A stretch of 64,000 bases of DNA from Nitrosopumilaceae archaeon (GTDB lineage Archaea > Thermoproteota > Nitrososphaeria > Nitrososphaerales > Nitrosopumilaceae). This document shows positions 32,369 to 55,042 of the stretch, piece by piece (the stretch's first letter is position 1; each line of letters starts with the position of its first letter). The notes below the pieces were generated by a model. It was not told the origin of the DNA. It did no database searches and worked only from the letters and a program-made list of their open reading frames with translations. The DNA is taken from the NCBI GenBank assembly GCA_965203465.1, contig CBDBCR010000001.1, positions 288,001 through 352,000 of the forward strand. Reading direction: 5' to 3'. The translations under genes and the position numbers were made by a program.

Positions 32369-32455
32369 CCTATAACACCACGCCAAAGCAATTTCCCTCT
32401 CGTACTTCGGGCGTAGGCTAGGGTGGAGGGAAATACATCTGAGTGGTGTTATAGG
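32369..32455. mobile_element. MITE-like 87-bp inverted-repeat element
   Basis: CCTATAACACCAC / GTGGTGTTATAGG outer arms and ATTTCCCTC / GAGGGAAAT inner arms; TA-type ends; partial copy at 4391. Confidence 0.65.
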
Positions 32456-36646: not shown

Positions 36647-37399
36647 ATGATACCGCTGCGCGACGACACGCCGCACCCGCCCGGCTTCAAGCCGCGCCTC
36701 ACGCAGGCGCTCATCGTGGCCAACGTGGCCGTCTTTTTCTTGGAGGTGGCCGTCACGGGGCAGTTTCTCGACTTTACCAACCGCAACGCGGCGGTCATGT
36801 TCTACCAGTGGGGGGCCGTCCCCGCCTGCATAACGGGCCTGGACGCCGAGGTGCCCTGCCAGCCCGAGCCGTACCTGGGCCTGCTTACGTCCACGTTCAT
36901 GCACGGCGGGCTGCTGCACCTGGGGGGCAACATGCTGTTTTTGTGGATTTTCGCGGACAACATAGAGGCGAAACTGGGCCGCCTGAAGTTTTTGGGGGTG
37001 TACCTTGCCTGGGGGGTCGGCGCCGGCCTCATACATGTGGCCGCCGACCCGGCCAGCCCGATACCTGCGGTGGGTGCCTCAGGGGCCATATCGGGGGTGC
37101 TCGGGGCGTACCTGATGATCTTTCCGCGCGCCCGGATACTGACGTTCGTGTTTTTGGGGTTTTTCATGCAGATGATACGGATACCGGCAAAGTGGTTCCT
37201 TCCGTTCTGGCTGGTGTTTCAGAACTTGCTGCCCTTTTTCATAGGGGGCTTCGGGCTGGGCTTGGACGGCGGGGGCGGGGTGGCCTACATGGCCCACATC
37301 GGCGGGTTCGCCCTGGGCTTGGCCGGCGGGTACCTGTACAAGCGCACGCACACCGACCAGTTCACCTACGGGACGCGGTACGGGTGGAGGGGGGACTAG
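36647..37399 (+). CDS. Rhomboid intramembrane serine protease
   Basis: FMHGGLLHLGGNM, GASG, AHIGG. Confidence 0.95.
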   Translation: MIPLRDDTPHPPGFKPRLTQALIVANVAVFFLEVAVTGQFLDFTNRNAAVMFYQWGAVPACITGLDAEVPCQPEPYLGLLTSTFMHGGLLHLGGNMLFLWIFADNIEAKLGRLKFLGVYLAWGVGAGLIHVAADPASPIPAVGASGAISGVLGAYLMIFPRARILTFVFLGFFMQMIRIPAKWFLPFWLVFQNLLPFFIGGFGLGLDGGGGVAYMAHIGGFALGLAGGYLYKRTHTDQFTYGTRYGWRGD

Positions 37400-37414
37400 G
37401 CCGGACAGGCGCGG

Positions 37415-37786
37415 CTTTTCCGCTCTGCGGCCCCATTGAAGCGTTCTGTACATGTCCTCGATCGGCGTCTAGACTTTCCGCAACCGCTCTGCGGCCCCAT
37501 TGAAGCTACGACACTGTGGACACACCGCGGTATCTGGGCCGCATCTTTCCGCAACGTGTTGCGGCCCCATTGAAGATCGTTGTACGGATCCTTCAGGAAC
37601 ACCATCATCTCGCCTTCTGCAACTTTCAAGTTGCGGCTCCATTGAAGAGGCCCCTCTCCGAGCCCGAGTGCCTTCTGCTTGTTTTTCCCGCAACCCTGTT
37701 GCGGCCCCATTGAAGCGGCGGCTTGCTCTGGTCTATGGCGAGCACCGCGTCCGCCTTCCGCAGCCAAAGTTGCGGCCCCGTTGGAG
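37415..37786 (+). CRISPR. Orphan degenerate CRISPR-like array, 6 repeats / 5 spacers
   Basis: Repeats at 37415, 37474, 37545, 37613, 37684, 37754; consensus CTTTCCGCAAC-loop-GTTGCGGCCCCATTGAAG; unique spacers of about 32-39 nt. Confidence 0.85.
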
Positions 37787-38231
37787 CTGGTTCGATCTGG
37801 CGTCCGAGCGGATCGTGCAGGTTTCATGGATGATCCGGCCGCGGGCCGATCTCTCGGCCCCGTGCGGCACGCGGCTGAAGGCCGGGCGCGGCGCGCGCTT
37901 TTGCAATCTGCGCGCCGCTATCTCCCCTTTGTCCCCAGAGTCGCCTTGTGCAGGCCGCACTCGAAACGGAAACCGCCGAGCAGGCCAGGCCAAACAGCAA
38001 AGTCCGTCTCGTCTCCGCTGCCCGAATCCGGCTTCAAAACCCCCATGTCAACGTTACGCAGGTTGTATGGCCGGCTCCCGCGTCCGCCAAGAAACGGATC
38101 TTGCCAAAACCGCATTCGAGCAGCGGCGGGCTGGCGACCGTGCCGTTGATCCCGATCGGCGCGCCGCCCACCTTCGTTGCTGTTTTCATACGCGTCCCGC
38201 TTGTTGCCTACACGCGGTTCTTTGCGGACCG

Positions 38232-38555
38232 CTAGAACAGCCGCCCTACCTCTTGCCTGTTGATGCGGTCTATGACCACGTTTCTCCTGTCGATCCCCTT
38301 CCTGTCGATCTCTTCCAAAAGTTCCGAAAAGTCCTCGTGGCTGGCGCGGACCTTTTTGCCGAGGACGGCTACGTACATGTCGCCGTAGTCTTTTTTGAGC
38401 GCCTCGCGGTTGTCCACCACCCACCCCGTATCGGCGCTGAATCTTGCAAGATCGGCGCATATCTGGTCGTAGTTTTTGGCGATCATCTCTTTCGCCTCTT
38501 TTACGTGCGGCAAGGACTCTCCTTCTCCCACGTACACGATGCTGGGACGGCTCAA
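38232..38555 (-). CDS. DUF5678-like small protein
   Basis: WVVDNREALKKDYGDMYVAVLGKKV pattern. Confidence 0.6.
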   Translation of the reverse strand: MSRPSIVYVGEGESLPHVKEAKEMIAKNYDQICADLARFSADTGWVVDNREALKKDYGDMYVAVLGKKVRASHEDFSELLEEIDRKGIDRRNVVIDRINRQEVGRLF

Positions 38556-38726
38556 CCGGCATGCTTTCTTCGGGCCTGCATAAAAAACCGCCGGATTGCA
38601 GGGGGCATGGGCGCCGGCGCGAATTCGCAGGACGGCCCCCGACTAGGCACGGCTTGGCGGGCAGCCTCCGAGCCCGGTTCTTGCCGGTATCTGGAGGCAC
38701 AAATACGGACTTGCGGCATATCGGGC

Positions 38727-38927
38727 ATGGAATACGACGCAAGGGGCGTGCTCAAGATGCACGGCAACCCGTACACGGCGGTCGAGGCAATCATGCGCTG
38801 GGATCACTTGAGCTTGGACGAAGCCGTCGAGTCGGTGAGGGCCGCCGCCGGCATGGTCGAACAGAGGTACGTGGACAATTTCAGGCGGCTGCTGGCCAAA
38901 GCTGAACGCGCTTCCCGGTCTGGGTGA
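38727..38927 (+). CDS. Small hypothetical protein (66 aa)
   Basis: CACAAATAC motif 21 nt upstream; decayed paralog at 46321-46467. Confidence 0.6.
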   Translation: MEYDARGVLKMHGNPYTAVEAIMRWDHLSLDEAVESVRAAAGMVEQRYVDNFRRLLAKAERASRSG

Positions 38928-39054
38928 GGGACCGGCCGCCGTCTTGGAATCATCGTCCGCCGCTTGGCCCCTCCGCGAAGATCCGGGCCTCCGCGCAGGC
39001 CGCGCCTTCCCGGGCTGGCTCCGCGGGGCGGCGCCGTCCGGCGGGCCCGGCCCG

Positions 39055-40635
39055 CTAACGGCCGAAAAAGCGCCGGGCGGGGTGCGACCCCATGCCGACG
39101 CTCTCGGGCCAGCCCTCCCTGCCCAGCCGCTCGGCTATCTTTCTTGCCTCCGGCACCCGGCGCGCGTACCCGAACATGTCCATGCACCTGTCCAGCAGGC
39201 CGGCCCGCTCGAGCTCCTTGGCCGGGAACATGTCCGTTTCGTGCTCTTTCCACCACTTGATCCACAGGTACACGTGCAGCGCTTTGGGGGCGATGTACAG
39301 CTCGGCGCGGCCCTGTACTATCTTCCTGTCCCGCATCCTTGCCAGCAGGGGGCCGAACAGGCCTTCGGGCACCGCCCCCTTGGCCGCCAGCAGCCCGCGT
39401 ATGCGGGCGAGCTCGCCCTCGTTTCCGAGCCTGCTGAACAGGCTCAGCCACGTCATGGCGCCGAGCCTGTCCTCGAATTGGGGGCCGTCGCCCCAGGCCC
39501 GCTTGTCCGCTATGTACCTGCCCCACACGTCCACCGTGTCGGGGGGCGCAAGTACGTCTTGCGGGTTGTCTCTCAGGTTCTGCCCCACCGTGTGGGCGGC
39601 CCGCGCCGACCTGCCGCAAAATTCGGCCCACTCGCCCAGATCCGGCGCGTCCCCGACGTAATGCCGCAGTACCTGCTCCGTGCCGGCCCGATCGAGGCCC
39701 CCTACTTCGAGGCGCCCGGCCGGCCCCTCGCCGTTACAGATAGTCACCAGCCGGACGCCCTTTTTCCTCCCCAGCCTGTCGTGCAGGTCCGCCTGGCAGG
39801 CAAAGTCGCACCCGTCCACCACCAGTATCGCCCCCGATTCGCCGCCGCACAGGCCTGCAAAAAAGCCCCGCCCCGCCAGCGCCGACGGGCCGTCCGCGTA
39901 CACCACGAGGGGGCGCAGATCGTCCGTGTCCGTCGCCTCCAGGACCAGCCGGGTCTTGCCGGACCCCGGCGCCCCGCCGATCCTGATGTGCGCCGGTCCG
40001 GGCCCGCGCAGCTCTGCCCTTATCTGGGCTATCTGATCCTCCTGCTCTTTTCCGCGGTGGAACTTGCGCCTCATCTCGGCCTGCTGCGACCAGTCTTCGT
40101 GGAGCAGAAAGCCGGCGTTCTCCACGCCTAGCACCTTTAGCCGGAGCGAGGGGAAACGGCGCAGAAACCCAGCGATCGCGCCCCGGTCCCACACCTCCAC
40201 GGACGCCCCGGCGTACCTCGGATCGAAGCCCTCGAGGTGCCCGGCGATCTCGTCCCCCGCTCCGCCCGGCTCGTCCTGCCCGGTGAGCGCGACCACCAGC
40301 GTGCCGTTTTCGTCGAGGCACGACTTTATCCTGCTCTTGATCTTTTCCCCGTCGAACAGGATCTCCTTGAGGCCGCGCCGCCCGATTTTTCCGGGCTTTA
40401 CCCGGTAGCACGTGAGGCCCTTTTTTACGATCCCGTGCCTGCCGCCTTTAGGCGCGCCGCGCACGACCCCGTCGACGCCGCCGTTGGGCGAGCCCGACGC
40501 CTGAGGCACGTCTATCCGGTCGTACGGGATGCCCGAGGCGCGCGCGTCGGCGTATATCAGATCCCTGAGCAGGCAGACGGCCTCGCCCTGCCCCATCGCG
40601 TCCATGTGCTCCGGCCCGACCTCGAATGCGCACAA
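39055..40635 (-). CDS. REase-like + STAND P-loop NTPase protein, probably C-terminally truncated
   Basis: PNGGVDG..YRVK nuclease-like N-domain; Walker A GAPGSGKT; Walker B ILVVDGC. Confidence 0.7.
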   Translation of the reverse strand: MCAFEVGPEHMDAMGQGEAVCLLRDLIYADARASGIPYDRIDVPQASGSPNGGVDGVVRGAPKGGRHGIVKKGLTCYRVKPGKIGRRGLKEILFDGEKIKSRIKSCLDENGTLVVALTGQDEPGGAGDEIAGHLEGFDPRYAGASVEVWDRGAIAGFLRRFPSLRLKVLGVENAGFLLHEDWSQQAEMRRKFHRGKEQEDQIAQIRAELRGPGPAHIRIGGAPGSGKTRLVLEATDTDDLRPLVVYADGPSALAGRGFFAGLCGGESGAILVVDGCDFACQADLHDRLGRKKGVRLVTICNGEGPAGRLEVGGLDRAGTEQVLRHYVGDAPDLGEWAEFCGRSARAAHTVGQNLRDNPQDVLAPPDTVDVWGRYIADKRAWGDGPQFEDRLGAMTWLSLFSRLGNEGELARIRGLLAAKGAVPEGLFGPLLARMRDRKIVQGRAELYIAPKALHVYLWIKWWKEHETDMFPAKELERAGLLDRCMDMFGYARRVPEARKIAERLGREGWPESVGMGSHPARRFFGR

Positions 40636-40751
40636 CGTGGGCTGTCGGAGGGCCGGCGCTATAAAAATCGCGTGGCGGCCCGTTCCGGCAACGGCTGCAA
40701 CCTCCGCGGCCGGGCGCGCCTGTTCGACTCTTTCCGGAGCCGCCTCCGGCA

Positions 40752-40998
40752 GGCCGCACCCGAAACGGAAACCACCGAGCGGATCCGTGGCAAAGCCTGC
40801 CTCGTCTCTGCCGCCCGAATCAGGCTTAAACCGTGTCGACGTTTCGCAGGATGGGCACGTGAGAACGCCGGCGACGCGTTCGTGCGTACGTCACGCGCGC
40901 AGCTTGCACACGATCCTTCGCGCAAACCACGCTAGAACGTCAGCTCCGCATACTGCCTGTTGATGCGGCTTATGGGCACGTTTCTCCCGTCGATCCCC
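40752..40998. repeat. Diverged duplicate of 37953-38298 (3' end of the DUF5678-like gene and downstream remnant)
   Basis: Shared blocks GGCCGCAC.CGAAACGGAAACC.CCGAGC and TGCCTGTTGATGCGG..TATG..CACGTTTCTCC.GTCGATCCCC. Confidence 0.7.
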
Positions 40999-41487
40999 GC
41001 GGAGTGGCAGTGCCAAAGGCTAGCGCGAGGCCCACCAGACGGAGATTACGCGCTACCTCTACTGCGACACCCCCATGGAAAGAGGAAACCATAATTTGTC
41101 TCGGAGTTCGTCTAGGCCTCTTAAGTTGACTATCAAGATCGACCACATGGCGGTTCTGCACATCGGACTATCCACCTGACTCATAGAGATAGGGCAGTCA
41201 TACACCACGGCGTTTTTTTGCACATGTCGTACAGTCTGATTATTTTTGTCAACCTCGCGTGAGACGATGTTGGCATTTATGACTATAGTTGGCATAAACC
41301 ATTGCTCCCACCTATTTTTGTCTAACGGGCCTGGGCGTTTCAAATACTCTTCAGCTACGCAGAACGTTTCTCTTGCGATCTGACATGCCACATCTAACAG
41401 CGAGCCGCCGAGCTTCCATACACCGTTGTTGTGTTTTTTGAACACTTGGCCTTGGGCATATCTGTGTGTCTCTAGACGAAGGTTATA

Positions 41488-42637
41488 TAGTATCTTAGAT
41501 TGACTTTGGATAATTTTTGGCACGAACGATCAGGCCGTAAGATAGTCGTGCATCTTTATGATCTTGATGCCGCCGGATCTCAGAGCTTTCAACACCTCTC
41601 TCTTTATCTGCTCGATGTCGTCGAAAAACTGGTTGGCGATGTAGCGCTTGACTTCCCTCCACTGGGACTCGATCGGCGCAAGCTCCGGCGTGTACTTTGG
41701 CAGGAACCTCGCCACGATGCCGCCGTCGGTTCTCTCGTACAGCCTCCGGAACACGGCTTCGCTGTGGTACGAGGCGTTGTCCGTGTAGATCAGCAGCTTG
41801 CCCAGCTTTTTGTAGGCCCTCATGAGGAACGCCTCTACGTTCTTGGCGTTGCCCGTATCGCAGAACTCGAAATAGCTCTGGCCTCCGGCCGCCACGACTC
41901 CGAGCAGGGTGGCCCGGCCTTTCCGCCTGCCCGTGACGTCGACCCTGACCTGTTCGGCGCGCTTGCCTTTCCTCCTTTTCTTGCGGTACCATCCTTTCCG
42001 GACCACGCTCTGCATGGATACGTGCATTTCGTCAAAAGAAACGGCCAGATGCCCGCGCCCAGCGTAGATTGCTACGGTTCTGTGAGCTTTTTTTTTGAAA
42101 TCCTTGATTTCTGCCGGAGACGCCCCGCGTGCGTCGCGGGGGCGGGGCTTGATGTACACGAAGCCCAGCCGGTTCACCAGATCCCAGACGGAGTGGACAT
42201 GGTACTCTACGCCGAACTTTTTCTTGATGTGCGTCCTGATCAGCGGTATCGTCCAAGCACCCGCTCCGAGTCCGATCGCTGCGGGACCCGCTTCCAGATC
42301 CCGCTCGAGCGCCTTGAGCTGGCGCTTGGTGAGCTTGCACGCTGCCCCTTTGTTCTTTATGTCGTATCTCTTGTTCAGACCGTTCTTTTCGATGTTCCTT
42401 ATCCAGTTGGTCACCGTGGTGCGCGGAATGTCCAGGGCCTTGGATATTTCCACGATGGTCTTTCCCTGCTTCCTTTGTATGCATACCAGCAGCCTGCGTT
42501 CTGCTTTTGGATCTTTTTCCTTCCGATGCATGTCGCACAGGCGGGCCATGGTCACTTTGGGAAGAAACCTCCTCGCCATGGGGCCCCCCCGACGTGCCGC
42601 TATTTAGATCTTTGCCCAAAGTCAATCGAAGATACTA
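41488..42637 (-). mobile_element. IS630-family insertion sequence, copy 2
   Basis: Same TIRs, length and transposase as copy 1; TA duplication at 41486-87 and 42638-39. Confidence 0.95.
41530..42579 (-). CDS. IS630 transposase
   Basis: Protein identical to 12091-13140. Confidence 0.95.
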   Translation of the reverse strand: MARRFLPKVTMARLCDMHRKEKDPKAERRLLVCIQRKQGKTIVEISKALDIPRTTVTNWIRNIEKNGLNKRYDIKNKGAACKLTKRQLKALERDLEAGPAAIGLGAGAWTIPLIRTHIKKKFGVEYHVHSVWDLVNRLGFVYIKPRPRDARGASPAEIKDFKKKAHRTVAIYAGRGHLAVSFDEMHVSMQSVVRKGWYRKKRRKGKRAEQVRVDVTGRRKGRATLLGVVAAGGQSYFEFCDTGNAKNVEAFLMRAYKKLGKLLIYTDNASYHSEAVFRRLYERTDGGIVARFLPKYTPELAPIESQWREVKRYIANQFFDDIEQIKREVLKALRSGGIKIIKMHDYLTA

Positions 42638-43632
42638 TATTCTCCCATTCGAATAGAGGAAGGAACTCTGTCACGTGTTCCCGGAGAGTGTAAAAGATCG
42701 TCTGATCTTTGCTCCGAACAGATCCTGTAGATGGCAGAAACTCCCTCTCGGGTCAGGTCGGAACTGGTAAAAACCCAACTCATACGTGTAGGGTCTAGCC
42801 AGTGTGTCCCCACACACAACGCGAGCCTAGAGCCGCATGTCGCAACCATGTCTACCAACGCCCTTTCTCCAACGTGCCCTTCTTGGTTGCCGCCAACATC
42901 GTTTTTGGACTCTGAAACGTCGTATCCTGGCCCATTAGCGGCTAGCGTTGCATAGTCGGGTTTAAAAGAATACTTGACCGATGTAGCGGTTAGGCATGGA
43001 TTTGGTCTAACAACCCGCTTGGATTCTTCTAGCTTTTTGTGTACTAAGGCGCGCAAGCTCACGGCGTCAGACACATCGTGCTGTTTTCTTGGATCTCGCT
43101 CAGACAACGGGTTGCCTCCTTGGCTGTTCTTCATTCGGGCCGCGTCCAACGACACCATTTATTTCAGGCCACCGCGCTTTTTGGCGCGGTTGCGGCGTGC
43201 TTGGAACCGGTAGCCGAGGGCTCGCCACGGTATCTCGGATCTCTTCGCGGCACGTGTTGCGCCAGCGCATGGGCGAGTCTGCCGCGATCGGACCGTTGCG
43301 CATCTCCAGCAACTCTGTCGGGCCAAACGGCATGCCATCCCTGTGGACCCCTTCCTCGTATATACTGCAAGATGCAGGCAAAAAGTAGCACTGGTGCGAC
43401 TTCGCGGGGTAGGCGCACCTTGGGCACGACGGCCCGATCGACGCGAATGCGGGGGAACAGGGGTGCGAGACGGCCGTGGCGGGGCGCCGCTTTCCTAAAC
43501 TGAACTGCGGCCCGGTTCTACGACGGCGATCCGGCGCCCGTTTCCAGGCTAGGCACCCCTGCCCCGAGGATCGCAAACGGTGCCCCGTGCCCGTCCCTGG
43601 AATGCTTATAAGCAGACAGTCCGGCCAAGCCC

Positions 43633-44685
43633 GTGCGGTTCCCGAAAAAGACTGACGCCCAGTTCCACAAAATATTCACGAGCATCATCACGGCCGACAA
43701 AAACAACACGTACAAGCTGGCTCTGGCCCTATTCCTGCTAGAGCACAGCAAGTCCAAACCGCGATCCTGCAAGGTCAAATACGAGGAGATCGCCCGGTTT
43801 TTTCTGAGATACTATTGGTCTCACGTGTGCAAGTCAAAGCTCCGCCAGGGGCCGGCAAACCAGGTTCCGCTGGTGGTGAAAATAATACGGGGCGAGTTCA
43901 ACAAGGACGTCTATCCGATGGACTTTTCCGACCTCGAAAAGGCAGAGCCGTGCAAGGTGGAAAAATGTGTAGGCATGATCACGAAAAGGTGCTTCAAGGA
44001 CGTAGTGCCGCGCTTCCACAGGATCGACGGGCGCAACCAGTGCGTCTTTTACAAATACTGGTCCAAAAAATACCGCGACAAATCGTGCAACGAAAGGCCG
44101 ATCCTGCCCAAAGGAATCCTGATCAACCCCGCGGCCGCGAAATTCCTCAGAAAGAACTGCGTTCCCCTGCGCAAAAGCGTCATCCTGGAGTGGGTCAAGT
44201 TCCTCGAGACCAAAAACTTCGGGGCCCCCAACCTATCGAAAAAAGTGGAAGCCAAAGTCCGCGGCCCGCAAGACCAGCGCAAGTTCCTCACGCTGCTCAG
44301 CCCGTTTTCCAAAAAATGCTTCTACTGCCGCAAAAAACTAAAGTTCGACCGCGCTACCCACGTCGATCACGTCATCCCGTACGACTATATGGGCGAGACC
44401 GAGCTGTGGAACGCCGTGCTGGCGTGCCAGAGCTGCAACTGCACAAAACTCGACAGGCTGCCGCCCGAGAGGTTCGTCAAAGCCCTGATAACGCAAAACC
44501 GCAGATGCTACCACAAGATCGGGGACTTGCGCAAGTCCATCGACAGCATGCACGGGGGCCGCCACACAGCCCGCATTTCCAAGAGCGCGGCCGAATCCCT
44601 CAGAAAGAACATCTACTGGCACTACCGTAGCGCCGCCGACTCTGGCTACCCGCCTCTGAGAGCGTTCCCGCCAAGATCGGCGTGA
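43633..44685 (+). CDS. HNH endonuclease with TYK..L / F..YYW N-terminal domain
   Basis: CFYC..HVDHVIP..NAVLACQSCN..K; CTTATAAG TATA upstream. Confidence 0.9.
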   Translation: MRFPKKTDAQFHKIFTSIITADKNNTYKLALALFLLEHSKSKPRSCKVKYEEIARFFLRYYWSHVCKSKLRQGPANQVPLVVKIIRGEFNKDVYPMDFSDLEKAEPCKVEKCVGMITKRCFKDVVPRFHRIDGRNQCVFYKYWSKKYRDKSCNERPILPKGILINPAAAKFLRKNCVPLRKSVILEWVKFLETKNFGAPNLSKKVEAKVRGPQDQRKFLTLLSPFSKKCFYCRKKLKFDRATHVDHVIPYDYMGETELWNAVLACQSCNCTKLDRLPPERFVKALITQNRRCYHKIGDLRKSIDSMHGGRHTARISKSAAESLRKNIYWHYRSAADSGYPPLRAFPPRSA

Positions 44686-44909
44686 CCGCGCCGTTCTTTC
44701 GAGTGTCCGAGCCTCGCGCTTGGCGGCGGATGCGGGCCTTGCCGGGCACGCGCGCAATCTGCGCCTGCGGGAGGCGCCCGCCGGGCAGGCCGGAGATGCA
44801 GGACCGCCCTTGCGCGGCGCACGGCCGGCTCGCGGGGCCGCTCCACATGGTCAAACGCGCGCCACCCGCAGAATCCCCCGTGCGCCTCTTCTGCCCCTGG
44901 ACGGGGCCT

Positions 44910-46151
44910 CTAGCCGAACGGCACTTCCCGGTATTCCAACTTGTCCTCTTCCAGCATATTTTTCAGCTTGTCCGGTATCTGGGGCGAGACCAAGAAGAAC
45001 CTCGCCCCTTCCATGCCCGTGACTTTTTTGTAGTCGTCCCGGTACCCGGATATCTGGCGCTTGTCCCTGAGCGCCGCCGCCGGATACTTTAGCTCCAGCC
45101 CGACCGCCCTGCCCGAACTGTCCCTGCACAAAAAGTCGATGCTGCCGGTGGGTAGCCGGTATTCGGACGACTGCAACAGCAGGCCGTCTTCGATTAGATT
45201 CAAGTTGGCCCTTATGTATTCTTGGTAGTCTTTTTCTTTCTTGATGGCCCCGTCCAGCTGCTTCTGCAGCCGGTCCGGGTTGTCTACATAGCTGTAGAGC
45301 CACTCGTGGTCGACGGACATGTAGAACGCGGCGACTTCCCTGCGTTCTGCGATGCCTTCCGAGACCAGTTTGTTCAGGAATTTGTTGCAGGCGGACGTGG
45401 GGATGCCCTCCGAGACGATGAGATCCTCTTCCGCGTCTGGAGCCAGCCCGCCTTTTAGCAGCTTTATCAGCTTGCACTGCCAGTTCAGCGTCTTGAGCTG
45501 CCTTGAGTCAAACAGGGACGCCAGCATGTTGATCCTTTCTGCCATGTCGTAGGTTCCGGCAAGCTGCACCACCTTGTCCCTGAGGCTTTCGAACTCTTGC
45601 CTCGGCACGCTTTCTCCCAGCATCTTTGCGGCGCGTTCGATGATCTCTTTGTTGGCCTGGTCTATCATCTCGTCGCGCGTCCTATGCAGGCCCTCGGTCG
45701 TTTCGTGCGTAAAACTGTTCATCTTGTTTTCGGTACGCGACTCTAGATCTGAAAAACCCGTGGAGAGGCTCTGCATGCTCTGCTGCATCATCGACATCTC
45801 GCTGGCGTGTGGAAGCTCGGTCTTGAGTTCGGTAAGATCGGAGCAGGTTGTTTTCAGCTGTTCGCCGATTCTCGACACGTCGTACTGGATCTTTGGGTCT
45901 ATGCCCCGGAGGGGGCGGATGGCGTTTTCGAGTTCGGTAAGATCGGAGCAGGTGGTTCTCAGCCGTTCGTCTATCCTCGACACGTCGTACTGGATCTTTG
46001 GGTCTATGCCCCTGAGCGGCTGGAGGTTCTTTTTGATCTCCGAGATGCCCCTGCGCTGCAGGACGTAGAATATGGAGCAGATGACCACCGTCGCAATCAT
46101 TGCCGCAAGCACGGCTGCCCCTTCTGCTTGCAGCGCCATGCCTCCGAGCAT
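44910..46151 (-). CDS. Membrane-anchored coiled-coil protein with C-terminal NucS-like PD-(D/E)xK nuclease
   Basis: N-terminal TM; 105-bp tandem duplication (about 45825-46025); EKDYQEYI..SEY..IDFLCRD...LELK. Confidence 0.8.
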   Translation of the reverse strand: MLGGMALQAEGAAVLAAMIATVVICSIFYVLQRRGISEIKKNLQPLRGIDPKIQYDVSRIDERLRTTCSDLTELENAIRPLRGIDPKIQYDVSRIGEQLKTTCSDLTELKTELPHASEMSMMQQSMQSLSTGFSDLESRTENKMNSFTHETTEGLHRTRDEMIDQANKEIIERAAKMLGESVPRQEFESLRDKVVQLAGTYDMAERINMLASLFDSRQLKTLNWQCKLIKLLKGGLAPDAEEDLIVSEGIPTSACNKFLNKLVSEGIAERREVAAFYMSVDHEWLYSYVDNPDRLQKQLDGAIKKEKDYQEYIRANLNLIEDGLLLQSSEYRLPTGSIDFLCRDSSGRAVGLELKYPAAALRDKRQISGYRDDYKKVTGMEGARFFLVSPQIPDKLKNMLEEDKLEYREVPFG

Positions 46152-46320
46152 CCAAGCGCGCCGATCGCGTGAGCCATAAATTGGTATCCATTGGCTGTTC
46201 TGTAGGCACTGTTGCGAGTTCGGGGCTAGTTTCTGACTCGACACGGCCGGCCCGATCGCCCCGGGCCCCTGTTCCTGCCGGTATCCGGAGGCACGAATAA
46301 GGGCTTGCGGAGGGCCAGTC

Positions 46321-46467
46321 ATGGCATGCGACGCCAGAACGGTGCTAGAAATGTACGGAGCCGCACATGGTGGCCGAGGCGGTGAGGGCGGCCGCTTCGA
46401 TCAGAGATACGTGGACAACGTCGGGCGGCTGCTGGCCGAAGCTAGACCTGTTGGCCGGCCCGCGTGA
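46321..46467 (+). pseudogene. Decayed paralog of 38727-38927 including its upstream region
   Basis: MACDARTVLEMYG..VRAAA..QRYVDN..RLLA; upstream GTTC.TGCCGGTATC.GGAGGCAC.AATA shared. Confidence 0.7.
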
Positions 46468-46686
46468 GGCACCGGCTGCCGTTCCGGCAGTCTTTGGCGG
46501 CATGCGTATTTCGTGCCCGAGTCACCCCGCAACGCCGATGTTGAAACGGCGAAAGCCGTGTCACGGCGTCTCGCCGCCGCCAAGGTTGTAGTACAGCAGC
46601 TCGGCCTTGTCCTTTCCCGCCGCTGCTTTTACTGTGCGCATGCGGCTCACTGCTAGGTTGATAAGGCGGCGCCCGCGAATGGCTCC

Positions 46687-46884
46687 GTGCTGATGACTCC
46701 AACGAACGAAAGCAAAGCGGCCGGGGCCACCGCGGCGTCCGTGCGAGCCGCGATGCCTGCGCACATCCAGCAGATGGGCGCGGAGGCCGGCGAGACGCTA
46801 GTGTGGGATCTCGACAAAGTAAAGGGCCGGCGGATAGCGACCATAACCGAGGCCGGCGGAAACAAGCCGGAGGCGGCGGCATGA
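46687..46884 (+). CDS. AbrB/MazE-like DNA-binding protein
   Basis: SVRAAMPAHIQQMGAEAGETLVWD pattern. Confidence 0.55.
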   Translation: MLMTPTNESKAAGATAASVRAAMPAHIQQMGAEAGETLVWDLDKVKGRRIATITEAGGNKPEAAA

Positions 46885-47273
46885 GGCGCCACCGGCGGTA
46901 CAGGCGGCGCGGGATAAACGCCAAGGTGCTGATCGTGGTAGTCGTCGCAATCGGCGCGGTGTCGTTCTTGGGCGTGAACGCTCAGTCGCTGACCACGTCG
47001 GAGGAAATATTCAGTTTCGAGAACGCGATCGAAGCCGAGATTGCCGAGAAGGTCAACGACGCGGTGTCAGAACACAATGCCGAGCACAGGAGAAACCAGT
47101 ACTGTTTGGAACGCTTGTACGAGGAATGGGACGGCATCGCCGGCACACAGATACCGGACGGCGAAAAGCGCGAGACGCTCGATCGGATGTTCAAGCCGTT
47201 TGGTTCTTTCGGCTTTTTTGACCCGTGCAGGGAACTAGCCGAAACCAGGATACGCGCGGAATTGCGGGGTTAA
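46881..47273 (+). CDS. Hypothetical membrane-anchored protein
   Basis: ATGA overlap; Arg-rich N-terminus followed by a hydrophobic helix. Confidence 0.6.
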   Translation: MRRHRRYRRRGINAKVLIVVVVAIGAVSFLGVNAQSLTTSEEIFSFENAIEAEIAEKVNDAVSEHNAEHRRNQYCLERLYEEWDGIAGTQIPDGEKRETLDRMFKPFGSFGFFDPCRELAETRIRAELRG

Positions 47274-47748
47274 GGCACGAAGAGTCAAAGTTCCACGCCG
47301 CCGGTAAGTCAGCGCAGCCGCACGGTCCGGGCGGCCGGCGCTCCCCCACGTATAGCAATCTGGGCCGCGATGAGCCCGGCTACTTGGGCATAACCTACAG
47401 CATGAGCTAGGACGATGTCCGAGGATAGCATGTAATTTGCGTCTGCTGGCCCGACTCTGGCCTTTTGCCGCGGCCGCCCATGTCCTACCGTGCACGATCT
47501 TGTGCGTGACACGGGGGAGATCGGGCCCCTCAGAGGTCGGCCTGGTCGGGCGGCTCCCGGCAGGCGCACGCGCATCCCCAGCGCGGCCGGCCCCCGCGTC
47601 CACGACCGACCGCCCAGGCCCCCCGCGCCCTTGATATTGGGGTACAGAAAAGCCGCCCCGCGGCCCAGTCACGGCTGTTTCCCGGGCCCGCCGGCGAGGG
47701 CGCCGGCGCCCGGGTATCTACAAATAGGACCGCCGCGGCCCCGAACAC

Positions 47749-47925
47749 GTGCCCCTCATCAAGGTCTCGCTGTACCCCGGCCGCACCGACGAACAGAAGC
47801 AAAAGTACGCCGAAGAGATAACGCGGGCCGCCTCGGACATACTGGGCGCCAAAAAAGAGCACGTCATCGTGATATACGACGAGCGGCCGCGCCCCGACTG
47901 GTACCTGGCGGGCAAACAACTTTGA
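47749..47925 (+). CDS. 4-oxalocrotonate tautomerase family protein
   Basis: PLIKVSLYPGRTDEQKQKYAEEIT...HVIVIYDE..DWYLAG with catalytic Pro1 (below the ORF-track cutoff). Confidence 0.9.
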   Translation: MPLIKVSLYPGRTDEQKQKYAEEITRAASDILGAKKEHVIVIYDERPRPDWYLAGKQL

Positions 47926-48707
47926 GCCGCGTCACGCTAGTCCAGATGCGCGCGTCCCCCGACAAGGAGCGCAACCTCCGGCACGTACTGCGCTCCATAA
48001 GGTCGGCCGCGCGGCGCGGCTCTTCGCTGTGCGCCTTTCCGGAGTTCATGATGGCCCCCCTGCCGGGGGGCAGGGCCGAGCTTGCAGGGCTTGCCGAGCC
48101 GCTGGGCGGCCCGTTCGTATCCGAAATATCGCGCGCGGCGCGCGAGCACCGCGTGGAGGTGGTCGGCACGCTCTACGAGTCCGAAAGGGGCGCCGTGTAC
48201 GACACCTCCTTCCTTGTCTCGCGCGCGGGGCGCCTGGTCTCGTCGTACCGCAAGACGCACCTGTACGACGCGCTCGGGTTCCGAGAATCGTCGAGGCTGA
48301 CGGCCGGCTCAAAGCTGCCCGGCACGGCCCCCTCGTCGCTCGGCAGGCTGGGCATGCTGGTCTGCTACGACCTGCGCTTCCCGGAGGTCTCGCGCGGCCT
48401 TGCCGCCTCGGGCGCGCGAGTGCTCGTGGCCCCCTCTGCGTGGGTCCCGGGGCCGATGAAGGCCGAGCACTGGCGCGTGGCCAACAGGGCGCGCGCCGTG
48501 GAGAACGGCTGCTACGTGGTCTCGCCGGACCGCGCCGGCCCCGAGTACTGCGGGCTCAGCTGCGTCATAGACCCGATGGGCGGGACTGTCCTGGAGATGG
48601 GCGCCGGGCCCGGCTCGGCGACGGCCGAGATCTCTGCCGAAAAGGTGCGCCGGGCGCGCCGCTCGCTGCCCCTGCTCAAGGGGCGGCGGACCGACCTGTA
48701 CCGGTGA
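47922..48707 (+). CDS. Carbon-nitrogen hydrolase (nitrilase family)
   Basis: FPE, YRKTHLYD, VCYDLRFPE triad; RAVENG. Confidence 0.93.
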   Translation: MSRVTLVQMRASPDKERNLRHVLRSIRSAARRGSSLCAFPEFMMAPLPGGRAELAGLAEPLGGPFVSEISRAAREHRVEVVGTLYESERGAVYDTSFLVSRAGRLVSSYRKTHLYDALGFRESSRLTAGSKLPGTAPSSLGRLGMLVCYDLRFPEVSRGLAASGARVLVAPSAWVPGPMKAEHWRVANRARAVENGCYVVSPDRAGPEYCGLSCVIDPMGGTVLEMGAGPGSATAEISAEKVRRARRSLPLLKGRRTDLYR

Positions 48708-48962
48708 GGGGGCAGCGCAGGTTGGAGCACCTGCGCTGCCGGGGCCTCCCCCCGGCCGCAGCGCAGCGCCGCCACGGGCCACCGGCACGAGGCGCACTTT
48801 GCGCGCGGCGCGCAGCGGGCCCCTCCGGGGCAGGCGGGGACGAGGCCGGGCAGCCGCCCCGGTTGGAGCACCCCGCGAAGCGCTTGCCCGTCGAGCGCGA
48901 GCGGACCGCCATCAGCATGCCGCCCCCGCAGGAGGGGCAGGGGACCGGCCCCGCGCCGGGCC
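48663..48962. repeat. Left copy of the ~300-bp direct repeat flanking the type III R-M cassette (intact nitrilase tail, decayed Zn-ribbon 3' part)
   Basis: Aligns with 54484-54787. Confidence 0.9.
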
Positions 48963-49025
48963 GTCTGAGACAAGACTGCCGTCCTGCCGATAGCTCTAAA
49001 AAGAGGGCTCGAACGGCGGCCGCAG

Positions 49026-51507
49026 TTGGCAAAAAAAGACTCGGTGGATCAGTACACCCACCCGGACTCCACGCGGACGAACAACCCGCCGGCGGGACTG
49101 GTCACACTGGAGACCGACCCGGACAGGCCCAGCAAGCACTACTCGCACGATCCCCGCCTTGATCCGCACCTCCAATGGTCCGGCAAACGGGAAAACTCCG
49201 AGTTTGAAGTGGATACCGTATCCCTACACGTGCACGAGACAGTTGATCCTGCCACCATTTTGGAAAAAGCAATGCAGCTGAGGCGGGGGGGGGGGTGGAT
49301 CCCAGCAAACGCTGTTTGGGTATTTCGACGAGCGGCTCTCTTTGCGTCATGCAGTAGAGTTCTACAAACACGATCAAAACTGGTCTAACCGACTGGTCGC
49401 CGGAGATTCCTTGCTGGTCATGAATTCGCTGTTGCAGAAAGAAGGCATGGGGGGCAAAGTACAGATGATCTACATAGACCCCCCGTACGGAATAAAGTAC
49501 AGTTCCAACTTTCAACCGTTCGTAAGCAAGCGCAACGTAACGGATGGCAAGGATGCCGATCTTACACAAGAGCCTGAAATGATAAAGGCGTTCAGAGACA
49601 CGTGGGAACTGGGAATACACTCGTACCTGTCATACTTGCGAGACAGGTTGCTGCTGTCCAAACAGCTACTTGCGGAGAGCGGCAGTGTGTTTGTGCAGAT
49701 TTCAAGCAAAAACCTCCACCACGTGTTGGAAATCATGAGCGAAGTGTTCGGTAGCGAGAATTTTGTCAACGTAATAAGCTATAGAACTACATCTGGCGAT
49801 ACTGCTGCGCTATTGCCATCAATGGTGGATTACCTCGTTTGGTTTGCTAAGGACAAAAAACACATCAAATTTCACCAAATTTTTCTCGACAAAGAGGTAG
49901 GCGCGAGTCGTGCATACAATTATGTCGAAGAACCAAACGGCACGATTAGAAAAATACACAAAGAAGAAATTAAAAACCCAAATTTGATCCCAAAAAACTG
50001 TCGAATATTCACTATGGCTGATTTGCATCATGCAGGTTTTCGTGAAACCACTACCTTTGAATTTGAGTTTAAAAGAAAAAAATTCCATCCAGGAAGCAAC
50101 CATCATTGGAAGACAAACAAGAAAGGAATGGACAGGTTGAAGAAAGCAGAGCGCCTTGTTCTAAGCACAAATACTCTACGTTACAAGAAATACTTTGGTG
50201 ACTTTCCGGTAACACATTTGGGCAACATGTGGATCGATACTGGAGGCGCAGCCAACAAAAAATACGTAGTTCAGACATCGCCCAAGATCATACAACGTTG
50301 CATGTTGATGGTTACAGACCCGGGTGACTTGGTGTTTGATCCTACATGCGGAGGCGGCACTACTGCATTTGTAGCAGAGCAGTGGGGAAGAAGGTGGATC
50401 ACATGTGATACGTCAAGAGTCGCTTTGGCATTAACAAAACAGAGATTAATGACTGCCGTCTATAATTATTATAAACTACACAAACCAGACGAAGGTGTCT
50501 CTTCTGGGTTTCTATACAAAACCGTGCAACACAAAACATTGCGGTCGATCGCAAATAATGAACCGCCAGATCTTGTGACGTTGTATGACAAACCAATCAC
50601 CCAAAGCAACAAAATGAGAATCTCTGGCCCGTTCACCATCGAGGCGGTCCCGGCGCCAACAGCAAAGTCGCTTGACGTTCTGTCCGCTGACCCGGAAGAC
50701 GATCCCACGACTGCGCCGGGCGCGTCCTCGCACCAGCAGCAATGGCGCGACGAACTGCTGAAGACCGGGATACGCGGAAAGTCCAACCAGAGAATCGAAT
50801 TCACCAGGGTGGAACCCCATCCTGCCACAAAGTGGCTCCACGCAGACGCAGAGACCAAAGACAAACCGAAGCGCGCGATGGTCTCGTTCGGCCCGGAGCA
50901 CGCCCCCTTGGAGCAGCGCCAGGTAGAGAACGCGATCAAGGAGGCGCAAACCCTGGTCCCCCCGCCCGAGATGCTGATATTCGCAGCGATGCAGTTTGAT
51001 CCCGAGGCCGCAAAGGACATCGACGGGTTGAACTGGCCGGGCGTCACAACGCTCAAAGTCGAGATGAACAAGGATCTTTTAACCTCGGATCTGAAAACCA
51101 AGCGCGCGAGCAACGAGTCGTTCTGGCTGATGGGCCAGCCCGACGTGGAGGTCGGAAAGACCGGCGACAAGCACGTGGTGACAGTCAACGGATTCGACTA
51201 CTACAACACGAAAACCGGAGAGATCGAATCGGGCGATTCTTCAAAGATCTCCATGTGGATGCTCGACGAGGACTACGACGGCAGGAGCGTGTACCCGAAG
51301 CAGATATTCTTCCCCATGGAAGGCGAGGACGGGGGGTGGGTCAAGCTTGCCAAGACGCTACGGGCCCAGATCGACGCGGATCTCATACACAAGTACCACG
51401 GAAAGACGTCGATCCCGTTCGAGGCGGGGCCCAACAAGCAGGCCGCCGTAAAGATCATCGACGACCGGGGGATTGAGTCGCTAAAGGTAATCCACCTCGA
51501 AAAATGA
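49026..51507 (+). CDS. mod: Type III R-M methyltransferase Mod, frameshifted at a G11 tract
   Basis: IYIDPPYG and DPTCGGGTT motifs; the N-terminal part (DPHLQWSGK..VSLHVHE) joins in frame if the tract is G10 or G13. Confidence 0.88.
49285..49295 (+). repeat. G11 homopolymer in mod
   Basis: AGGC-G11-TGGAT at the frameshift point. Confidence 0.9.
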
Positions 51508-54365: not shown

Positions 54366-54483
54366 AGCGCCCGCGCGGCCGACGCCCCGGATTTGGGCCG
54401 GGATCGGGCGGCCCGGCTCGGAGGCTGGCTTTTGCCGCGCCGGGAAGCATAGCGTCTCCGCTCCGGCCCTCCCCGATCCGACC

Positions 54484-54787
54484 GTCGCCGCCCCCGCTCA
54501 GGGGGCGGCGGACCTACCCGTGCCGGTGAGGGGGCAGCGCAGGTTGGAGCACCTGCGCTGCCAGGGCCTGCCCCGGCCGTAGCGCAGCGCCACCACGGGC
54601 CACCGGCACGAGGCGCACTTTGTGCGCGTGGCGCGCAGCAGGCCCCTCTGGGGCAGCGGGGACGAGGCCGAGCAGCCGCCCCGGTAGTTGGAGCACCCCA
54701 CGAAGCGCTTGCCCGTCGAGCGCGAGCGGATCACCATCAGCATGCCGCCCCCGCAGGAGGGGCAGGGGACCAGCCCCGCGCTGGGCC
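54484..54787. repeat. Right copy of the direct repeat (decayed nitrilase tail, intact Zn-ribbon gene 3' part)
   Basis: Aligns with 48663-48962. Confidence 0.9.
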
Positions 54788-54911
54788 TGCCGGTGCCGGC
54801 GATGGTGTACAGCCTCTTTCCGGCAGACCAGGACAGGTACCCGGCCGGGTCGGCGTACTGGCGCAGCCGGTCGCGGAACTTTTTGACGCTCGACTCCGTC
54901 GCGCTGGCCAC
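54498..54911 (-). CDS. Stand-alone topoisomerase-IA-type C4 zinc-ribbon protein
   Basis: CPSCGGG.L.VIRS..TGKRFVGCSNY..C..S.PLPQ..CASC..CSNLRC. Confidence 0.8.
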   Translation of the reverse strand: MASATESSVKKFRDRLRQYADPAGYLSWSAGKRLYTIAGTGRPSAGLVPCPSCGGGMLMVIRSRSTGKRFVGCSNYRGGCSASSPLPQRGLLRATRTKCASCRWPVVALRYGRGRPWQRRCSNLRCPLTGTGRSAAP

Positions 54912-55042
54912 GTGCCTGCCCGCCACGGCCGGCTTTGCGGGCGCGGGCAAGATAAGCGTGGCGCGCGGGGCGGAAAACGTTGACAAGGGGTCTGAAACAT
55001 TTGACAGAGGCCATTAAATTGCCCGGGCGCGACGTAGCTGCG

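Follow-up and report, generated by a model that had tools for sequence, protein, structure and literature searches.

We analysed a 64,000-nucleotide (nt) stretch of a Nitrosopumilaceae archaeon genome (hereafter the window; GenBank assembly GCA_965203465.1, contig CBDBCR010000001.1, here contig C1, positions 288,001 to 352,000) and found, directly downstream of a rhomboid protease gene, an array of six mutually different repeat-like units separated by five spacers. It is close to certain that this array derives, in degenerate form, from the type I-G repeat of this genome, that is, the repeat of the canonical CRISPR array carried by contig C4. As for its role, our best reading, to which sequence comparison gives about an even chance, is that of a locked type I-G mini-array that would be processed in trans and would still encode CRISPR RNAs (crRNAs).

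According to this reading, the array would consist of six units and five fixed spacers and would no longer acquire new ones. Transcription would probably run into it from the rhomboid operon, the transcript would be cut in trans by one of the two Csb2 proteins of C4, and the C4 Cascade would load the resulting five crRNAs. The internal units keep the elements of Csb2 processing, namely the CCGC/GCGG base of the hairpin, the CCCC linker and the 8-nt handle ATTGAAGC, so that a C4 Csb2 could cut the transcript in trans. The tip of the hairpin, in the middle of the repeat, would be unconstrained for processing and could thus be shortened or replaced. As a side effect, the units would have become too unlike to recombine easily and probably unusable for spacer integration, which would leave the spacer set "locked". 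That the spacers have targets, and that the crRNAs are transcribed, processed and loaded, we infer from the sequence.

The units and the genome's type I-G repeat

The six units lie on the plus strand between positions 37416 and 37787 (R1 to R6 in Table 1) with a period of 64-72 nt; a repeat search over the six copies gave start-to-start spacings of 64, 70, 72, 68 and 71 nt. The five spacers between them, of 31-38 nt, are all different, and their lengths are close to the 34-39 nt range of the canonical array. A covariance model built from 40 canonical I-G repeats, searched without filters over 16 kilobases (kb), matched six of the six units with expectation values (E) from 1.1e-8 to 1.1e-3, the next match having an E of 1. 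Genome wide, the 15-mer GCGGCCCCATTGAAG occurs 75 times with up to two mismatches (14 forward, 61 reverse), versus 5 occurrences of the reversed control. A chance origin of the units is excluded. The array therefore presents direct repeats, a regular spacing and unique spacers of similar size, as CRISPR arrays do, but not near-identical repeats, and its units show the marks of the type I-G family, that is, the hairpin, the 4-nt linker and the ATTGAAGC handle. Tandem Repeats Finder reported nothing at the array, as expected from units that are so unlike each other, and Rfam gave only a sub-threshold match to CRISPR-DR16 at 37683-37716 (21.6 bits versus a gathering score of 35, E 0.13). Two open reading frames (ORFs) that overlap the array (37396-37827 on the minus strand and 37500-38927 on the plus strand) were rejected as genes, for they fail the criterion of true genes based on G+C at third codon positions (GC3) and have no family match.

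The genome consists of 4 contigs (2.26 Mb, ~65% G+C), and its small-subunit ribosomal RNA is archaeal (1441.8 bits with the archaeal model versus 1088.5 with the bacterial one). Whereas the window array is on C1, the cas genes are on contig C4 (78 kb), where we found an array of 54 identical 36-nt repeats, CCTTCCGCAACTATCAAGTTGCGGCCCCATTGAAGC; this repeat is, judged by its sequence, the one from which the window units derive. The leader end of the C4 array is adjoined by Cas2 and by a fusion of Cas4g/Cas1g (NF049935; 686.8 bits at a cut-off of 560). Past its other end lie a first module encoding Csb1/Cas7g, Csb2, Cas3g and a Cas3-extension protein, and then a second one encoding Cas3g, a Cas8g2-like protein (below cut-off), Csb1 and Csb2, which amounts to two Cas3g, two Csb2, two Csb1 and one Cas8g2-like protein. 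In the type I-G system of Thioalkalivibrio (T.) sulfidiphilus, the C-terminal Cas6-like domain of Csb2 binds the repeat hairpin, and the cut falls 4 nt 3′ of the hairpin base, leaving an 8-nt 5′ handle; the protospacer adjacent motif (PAM) reported there is TTN (PMC9638904). The Csb2 layout described in PMC9638904 corresponds to hairpin, CCCC and ATTGAAGC in the present repeat.

These results bear on an earlier note on this DNA, made from the sequence alone, which had described an orphan CRISPR-like array of the type I-G (I-U) style. The assignment was right, since Cas4g/Cas1g, Cas3g, Csb1 and Csb2 are encoded on C4; the search of the genome for cas loci that the note had proposed thus found type I-G genes, making Csb2 available and processing in trans possible. 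The array is an orphan within the window only, C4 of the same genome carrying both the type I-G cas genes and a canonical array. The statement that the 64 kb contain no cas gene holds for the 34 ORFs that were scanned with PADLOC, out of 46 called by GC3, the sole match being a weak Csa3-like one (E 5e-4), and it does not extend to the genome. The note was also correct about the absence of an AT-rich leader: there is no leader beside the array, the DNA upstream being rhomboid coding sequence, and the C4 leader has no match anywhere between 30 and 46 kb of the window. The distance to the rhomboid gene has to be amended from 15 to 16 nt, as the stop codon ends at 37399 and the first unit begins at 37416. 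All the hairpins listed in the note are present in the sequence. However, not every repeat has a different loop: R1 and R2 have in common a 23-nt core formed by CCGC-TCT-GCGG and CCCCATTGAAGC, which gives five tip types among the six units. The suggestion that the array was built by recombination found no support, as the lineage-specific arms CCGCAAC/GTTGCGG are common to the units and the C4 repeat. An assembly from different arrays was likewise rejected, these arms being present in the units, the C4 repeat and the repeats of relatives, whose canonical forms keep the arms together with a 6-nt centre. The 15-mer GCGGCCCCATTGAAG was present with at most one mismatch in 18 of 101 sampled family genomes, including the present one.

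Where the units changed

We then compared the window units with the parent repeat position by position. The core composed of CCGC, GCGGCCCC and the ATTGAAGC handle accumulated 6 changes in 120 positions over the six units, versus 7 changes in the 24 positions of the 4-nt 5′ flank (Fisher p = 0.0013). The internal units retain the stem base CCGC/GCGG, the linker CCCC and the handle ATTGAAGC. By contrast with this kept core, the central TATCAA survives, with one change, in R4 only and is replaced in the other five of the six units by nothing, CGC, GT, CCT or CAAA. In the six units, length changes were seen in the central twelve positions only, and they all shorten the unit. With indels evenly distributed along the 36 positions, 4-5 independent ones would all lie in the central third with a probability of ~0.01 to 0.004 by our own arithmetic. 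The changes are thus concentrated in the hairpin tip relative to the canonical C4 array; the even spread over stem and loop that the earlier note had named among the signs against its own proposal is not observed.

The same division is found across the family. As a comparison set we used 40 different canonical I-G repeats from other species, in which the 3′ 13 nt are invariant by the search pattern itself. The proximal pairs C-G, C-G, G-C and C-G occur in 35-39 of the 40 repeats, and the proximal CCGC is at least 87% conserved. Variation and covariation in the 5′ arm and stem are confined to the distal four pairs, which covary (63 both-side changes versus 19.2 ± 5.4 after shuffling, with 0 of 500 shuffles as high). 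The variable and the constant positions of the window units therefore coincide with those of the family. When folded alone, all six units form their hairpin at the same place, and five of the six hairpins form in the fold of the whole transcript. The "conserved stem and 3′ handle" of the earlier note stands for the basal four pairs, the CCCC linker and the handle, kept as primary sequence, but not as covarying structure: the signal is primary-sequence conservation at the stem base and tail, not covariation. A model-guided alignment of the degenerate units was polluted by reverse-strand matches on palindromes and was not used for the pair counts.

The covariance model of the repeat family located further degenerate units in the genome (Table 1), and a second regularity became visible when the window array and three other mini-arrays were taken together. 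Mismatches in the 8-nt handle amount to 13 of 32 positions in the four last units, versus 2 of 80 in the ten others (Fisher p = 7e-7). The handle is degenerate in each of the four last units; it is intact in 8 of the 10 non-last units, and both of the mismatches found in these sit at the eighth base. On the other hand, the most reduced hairpins belong to first units, with four pairs in window R1 and in the first unit at C1:357756-357853 (C357_R1) and interrupted stems in those at C1:715097-715200 (C715_R1) and C4:34324-34574 (C4m_R1). This pattern is what would be expected if every spacer needs a handle upstream and a hairpin downstream. In CreTA, the Cas5-binding handle is kept and the mid-repeat adaptation anchors are lost in the pseudo-repeat psiR1, the handle is lost in psiR2, and the degenerate repeats are reported to resist recombination (PMC9458426); the window array and the other mini-arrays follow the same first-unit/last-unit logic as psiR1 and psiR2.

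Some features of these additional elements may be recorded separately. In the four-unit mini-array between the two effector modules of C4, a site where creA/creR-like elements are described, all units keep the 36-nt length, and its spacers have no match above chance on C4. In both two-unit elements of C1 the hairpin of the first unit is minimal or imperfect and its handle intact, and the handle of the second unit is degenerate; both elements adjoin multi-copy elements in regions poorly conserved in relatives. A 5′-anchored match of 16 of 18 positions between the spacer at C1:715k and a site 2.5 kb away was not counted as a target, as the DNA there is GC-rich and probably coding, the flank is GCA and the match is probably due to chance. 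Moreover, the leader end of the canonical array is irregular in two genomes (C4:48782-48953 here and C2:2348946-2349148 in G105): a gap of 98-103 nt separates a first unit from the following ones, which are just 38-43 nt apart, that is, nearly back-to-back repeats, one of them with damage in its 5′ arm. The arrangement may represent a conserved leader-proximal element.

The island, the spacers and competing explanations

In five relatives (G010, G003, G023, G022 and G004) the rhomboid gene is directly followed by orthologues of 47749-47925 and 47919-48704 and, later, of 54531-54965. This contiguity indicates that 37400-47748 (10.3 kb) is an insertion in this lineage, with the array at its left edge. 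Because the rhomboid gene and its downstream neighbour are contiguous and on one strand in the relatives, read-through into the array, as proposed in the earlier note, is plausible, although the two genes are now 10.3 kb apart; from this arrangement, the rhomboid gene is the presumed source of transcription into the array. A perfect match to a spacer of the C4 array, c5, lies within the island ORF that has a NucS_C domain (Table 1). The 5′ flank of this protospacer reads ..TTTGCG, that is, GCG, with TTT 3 nt further upstream; the published TTN PAM is that of T. sulfidiphilus and may not be the host's. The product of the targeted ORF could, from its domain content, be a CRISPR-ancillary nuclease with a sensor domain.

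Table 1. Positions of the array units and associated features. Window coordinates, unless a contig name (C1, C4) precedes the position.
Feature	Position	Strand	Description
R1	37416-37442	+	27 nt; minimal hairpin CCGC-TCT-GCGG, CCCC, intact ATTGAAGC handle; family-model match 30.6 bits, E 3.5e-7
S1 spacer	37443-37473	+	31 nt
R2	37474-37506	+	33 nt; relic 5′ arm CCGCAA, then the CCGC-TCT-GCGG core of R1 and tail; model match 35.6 bits
S2 spacer	37507-37544	+	38 nt
R3	37545-37576	+	32 nt; CCGCAAC-GT-GTTGCGG, handle ATTGAAGA; model match 33.3 bits
S3 spacer	37577-37612	+	36 nt
R4	37613-37648	+	36 nt, full length; 4 substitutions versus the C4 repeat, one C-G pair changed to U-G; 30.2 bits
S4 spacer	37649-37683	+	35 nt
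R5	37684-37716	+	33 nt; CCGCAAC-CCT-GTTGCGG, tail and handle intact; model match 32.8 bits
S5 spacer	37717-37753	+	37 nt
R6, last unit	37754-37787	+	34 nt; good 7-bp hairpin with G-U pair, degenerate handle GTTGGAGC; 18.7 bits, E 1.1e-3
Rhomboid protease gene	36647-37399	+	Pfam PF01694, 103.5 bits; syntenic in relatives; directly upstream of array
Lineage-specific island	37400-47748	.	~10.3 kb; array is its left edge; synteny in 5 relatives
DUF5678 gene	38232-38555		multi-copy module; in island
526-amino-acid ORF	39055-40635		weak PD-Lambda-4_A match; in island
IS630-like element	41485-42640		DDE_3 transposase, 25-nt inverted ends; in island
HNH gene	43633-44685		PtuB-like; in island
470-amino-acid ORF	44910-46322		C-terminal NucS_C (PD-(D/E)xK-like) nuclease domain; in island
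Protospacer	45631-45665	+	identical to sixth extracted leader-end spacer (c5) of the C4 array, C4:48462-48496
58-amino-acid ORF	47749-47925	+	directly follows rhomboid gene in relatives; marks right edge of insertion
Type III methylase	49342-51507		second insertion
Res helicase-nuclease	51504-54365		second insertion
Four-unit degenerate mini-array	C4:34324-34574		between the two effector modules (Cas3-extension gene / second-module cas3g)
Two-unit, one-spacer element	C1:357756-357853
Two-unit, one-spacer element	C1:715097-715200
Partial solo unit	near C1:805290

Other features of the region were noted on the way. The ORF at 44910-46322 is the one with the weak Csa3-like match (E 5e-4) and contains a 105-nt tandem duplication at 45818-46027. 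The IS630-like insertion sequence (IS) element has five further near-full-length copies in the genome (89-99.9% identity) and a sixth, partial one (83%), the DUF5678 segment 38060-38545 has four other copies (72-81% identity), and two pairs of segments are repeated within the island, 37935-38298/40734-40998 and 38641-38942/46235-46482 (70-85% identity). A second lineage-specific insertion with respect to the five relatives, at ~48705-54530, carries a type III restriction-modification pair. Outside the island, an 85-nt element at 32370-32454 has at least 6 other copies in the genome, one of them, at C1:735461, 100% identical. ARAGORN found no transfer RNA in the window.

The spacers were compared with several sequence collections. 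With blastn-short, the mini-array spacers matched their own genome at chance level only, the best matches having 1 mismatch over 20 nt (E 0.011) and 2 over 23 nt (E 0.043). None of the five 22-mers formed by the first 22 nt of S1-S5 was found in IMG/VR. A search of 400 family genomes with the array returned, among the ~150 matches listed (the best of ~780), only repeat-driven ones. In the 26-kb cas region, 5′-anchored seeds of the window spacers, scanned with every 6th position left free, reached 8-9 positions at most, which is chance level (the longest over all mini-array spacers of the genome was 10), and within 3 kb on either side of the array no window-spacer seed matched above chance.

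None of the 16 sequencing runs listed for the genome is an RNA run. Sequence variation between strains was assessed by aligning contigs of four runs, from four different studies, to 36900-38300. Three of them (X3, X4 and X12) show no difference from the window in the parts of the array that they cover (37477-38300, 37479-38300 and 37613-37799, respectively). In the fourth, X8, the rhomboid gene differs at 24 of 502 positions, whereas 37426-38300 differs at 7 of 875 positions and by one gap. None of the X8 differences listed falls in a hairpin core or handle; four are within the array, some at the end of S1 and the others in R2, whose relic arm alone is changed in this one population strain (37481 and 37483). 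By its coordinates, the X8 contig would have ~65 extra nucleotides after R1, probably one more unit. Minor contigs that have lost whole units, with joints 37442>37698 in X3 and 37548>37688 in X4, were also found. In addition, an R3-like unit (37540-37575) appears in contigs of X3, X4 and X8 flanked on both sides by sequence absent from the genome, the flanks being similar but not identical between the three, which indicates that a related organism or locus carries a solitary R3-like unit.

Several of these results weigh against a mini-array that still makes guides. No protospacer was found for any of the five window spacers in the own genome, IMG/VR or the 400 family genomes, although these target collections may lack the relevant mobile elements. 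The low divergence of X8 reaches past the array to 38300, so it may reflect a recent transfer of the island rather than selection on the array. The fold of the whole array is no more stable than that of shuffled sequence (z = -1.04), and the stem substitutions across the genome's degenerate units are mixed (by our reading, ~4 keep the pair and 3 break it) and not clearly compensatory. The four-pair stems with 3-nt loops of R1 and the R2 core may be insufficient for Csb2. If the window is taken alone, the effect on the handle of the last unit is not significant (2/8 versus 2/40, p = 0.12), and a mutational bias could account for the accumulation of indels at hairpin tips.

This last point is central to the main competitor, a possible but doubtful one, namely that the array is a neutral relic, a dead remnant brought in by the island insertion or cut off by it and now decaying. 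Its tips would then have changed simply because short palindromes lose or rewrite their centres by slippage or template switching in replication, with no selection elsewhere, an account that we regard as equally doubtful. A relic would have no leader, no adjacent cas gene and no identified target, as is the case here, and would suffer whole-unit losses such as those of the minor X3 and X4 variants. The length changes are all shortenings, which fits a deletional bias, and R1 resembles R2 after a deletion between two copies of CCGC. Shortened hairpins with an intact tail were found in just 3 of 401 family genomes, as expected of an oddity (the six units here, a two-unit element in G088 and one doubtful match in G170). 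However, a bias at the tips does not account for the contrast between the non-last units, 8 of 10 of which have an intact handle and the others a change at the last base only, and the last ones, whose handle is degenerate in 4 of 4, nor for the 5′ flank having changed six times as often as the core. Also, in a small sample, the degenerate units at the trailer end of large arrays of relatives (G070 and G088) are full-length with point changes and show no tip loss. If the array is merely a relic, the finding is an ordinary one.

A different beneficiary is considered if the island is, or once was, mobile. We think it unlikely that the array is a counter-defence or competition device borne by the island that hijacks the host type I-G proteins, be it as an RNA decoy tying up Csb2 and Cas7 (Racr-like), through guides that silence cas genes (Cracr-like) or through guides against rival elements, as in viral mini-arrays. 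In a more specific form, to which we likewise give a low probability, the array would be a multiplex set of minimised repeat mimics, trimmed to the Csb2 core and capturing the host I-G proteins in trans; such a set would blunt the host array, one spacer of which already matches the island perfectly, or redirect Cascade against rival elements, and the mutual unlikeness of the mimics would shield it from recombination and from the host spacer-integration machinery. The array is indeed the edge of a lineage-specific insertion that contains an IS element and multi-copy modules and differs between strains much less than the core gene beside it does, and island and host main array coexist despite the perfect spacer. 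Yet the flank of the c5 target is GCG and not the TTN PAM published in PMC9638904, so that no anti-CRISPR is needed to explain the survival of the island. Nor did we find in the island an integrase, a virus or plasmid hallmark gene or flanking direct (attachment-site, att) repeats; two island proteins have no relatives in IMG/VR, and the island genes look defence-like (PD-Lambda-4_A-like, PtuB-like HNH, with the type III restriction system next door). The window-spacer seeds against the cas locus, of 9 positions at most, are at chance level, and no rival-element target was found in the IMG/VR 22-mer search or in the 400 family genomes. Viral contigs do carry I-G-type solitary units and mini-arrays: 58 of the 148 matches to the 15-mer in the IMG/VR loci examined have a CCGC arm 3-16 nt upstream; we estimate that ~100 matches to a 15-mer occur by chance in a collection of that size, single matches without the arm proving nothing. 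Phage arrays of degenerate crRNA-like genes have also been described (bioRxiv 10.1101/2024.10.29.618823). Were this explanation true, it would be the first RNA-based hijacking of Cas proteins for type I-G, and in an archaeon, within the literature searched.

Two observations on the viral contigs of IMG/VR stand by themselves. An identical I-G-type solitary unit (..CTCCGCGGACTAGCCGCGGCCCCATTGAAGC) is present in four of them (L166, L198, L212 and L257), and a 74.6-kb contig (L204/L246) carries a seven-unit array of slightly differing repeats with a spacing of 75-85 nt.

Finally, it is highly improbable that the array is a host regulator of the CreA/CreR type, whose spacers would guide Cascade to partly matching host promoters and repress without cleavage, for although its pseudo-repeats show the first-unit/last-unit logic of CreTA, creA-like elements have been noted between the cas genes of subtype I-U, as I-G was formerly called (bioRxiv 10.1101/2023.03.10.532045), and this genome has such an element between its cas genes (C4:34324-34574), the window array is neither in nor beside the cas locus, has no 5′-anchored match above chance in the cas region, within 3 kb or genome wide, so that the regulatory role suggested in the earlier note is left without a target, and has five spacers, more than the CreA/CreR genes described, which have one spacer between one or two ectopic repeats.

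Comparison with known systems

One known kind of remote or orphan CRISPR array is distant from cas genes and has a last repeat that is degenerate at its 3′ end. In the window array, by contrast, no unit has escaped degeneration, and the damage, which includes length changes, falls mainly on the hairpin tip. Who benefits from remote degenerate arrays becomes a question that this genome poses directly, the candidates being the host, the island or nobody. Its 2.26 Mb contain the array, three more mini-arrays and a host spacer directed at the island, which makes it a compact test system. Should the five guides of the locked mini-array be made, the units would constitute a natural map of the minimal RNA needed by Csb2: a stem of four basal pairs with a 3-nt loop, followed by CCCC and the handle. 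This information is missing from the solved structure of the I-G effector, in which Csb2 is not visible (PMC9638904).

The array resembles the canonical type I-G system of T. sulfidiphilus (PMC9638904) in its hairpin, the 4 nt that follow, the 8-nt ATTGAAGC handle and the spacers of ~35 nt, and Csb2, Csb1, Cas3g and Cas4g/Cas1g are encoded in the same genome. In contrast to the canonical system, its units range from 27 to 36 nt and differ from each other, it lacks a leader, the cas genes are on another contig and there is no sign of spacer acquisition.

In the literature searched, we found no description of a multi-spacer, remote, tip-shortened I-G array, nor of an archaeal one, although preprint supplementary tables may hold cases. 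Degenerate mini-CRISPRs are described for types I-B, I-E, I-F, I-C and V-A and noted for I-U within cas loci. The likeness to Racr, viral mini-arrays and Cracr (PMC10651486; PMC11656645; bioRxiv 10.1101/2024.10.29.618823) lies in repeat mimics located away from cas genes in horizontally acquired DNA; as in viral and plasmid units, the stem base is conserved, and multiplexed arrays of degenerate units exist among them. However, the viral mini-arrays described have repeats identical to those of the host and 1-2 spacers, the Cracr arrays described have 2-3 spacers matching cas or CreA/R targets, and Racr is a single repeat with no series of spacers and repeats, whereas the window array has six units and five spacers. 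Also, viral and plasmid units sit on mobile DNA, while the window island is lineage-specific and targeted by a host spacer but of putative mobility, no hallmark gene having been found in it. Type I-G is absent from the main text of the Racr paper (PMC10651486) and from the type list of the Cracr preprint (bioRxiv 10.1101/2024.10.29.618823).

A further parallel is provided by CreA/CreR (PMC9458426; bioRxiv 10.1101/2023.03.10.532045), whose degenerate repeats also keep the processing and handle signals, the first unit keeping the handle and losing the mid-repeat and the last unit losing the handle; this degeneracy is reported there as a protection against recombination. Those elements have one spacer that partly matches a nearby promoter and lie inside cas loci, while the window array has five spacers, is far from cas genes and shows no detectable target. 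The CreA/CreR studies deal with types I-B, I-E, I-F and V-A, including haloarchaeal repeats that lack a conserved hairpin, whereas the window units conserve the base of theirs. If the guides are made, the principle that the degeneration of repeats stabilises fixed guides would thus be extended from the one-spacer CreA/CreR to a remote, five-guide type I-G array of an archaeon.

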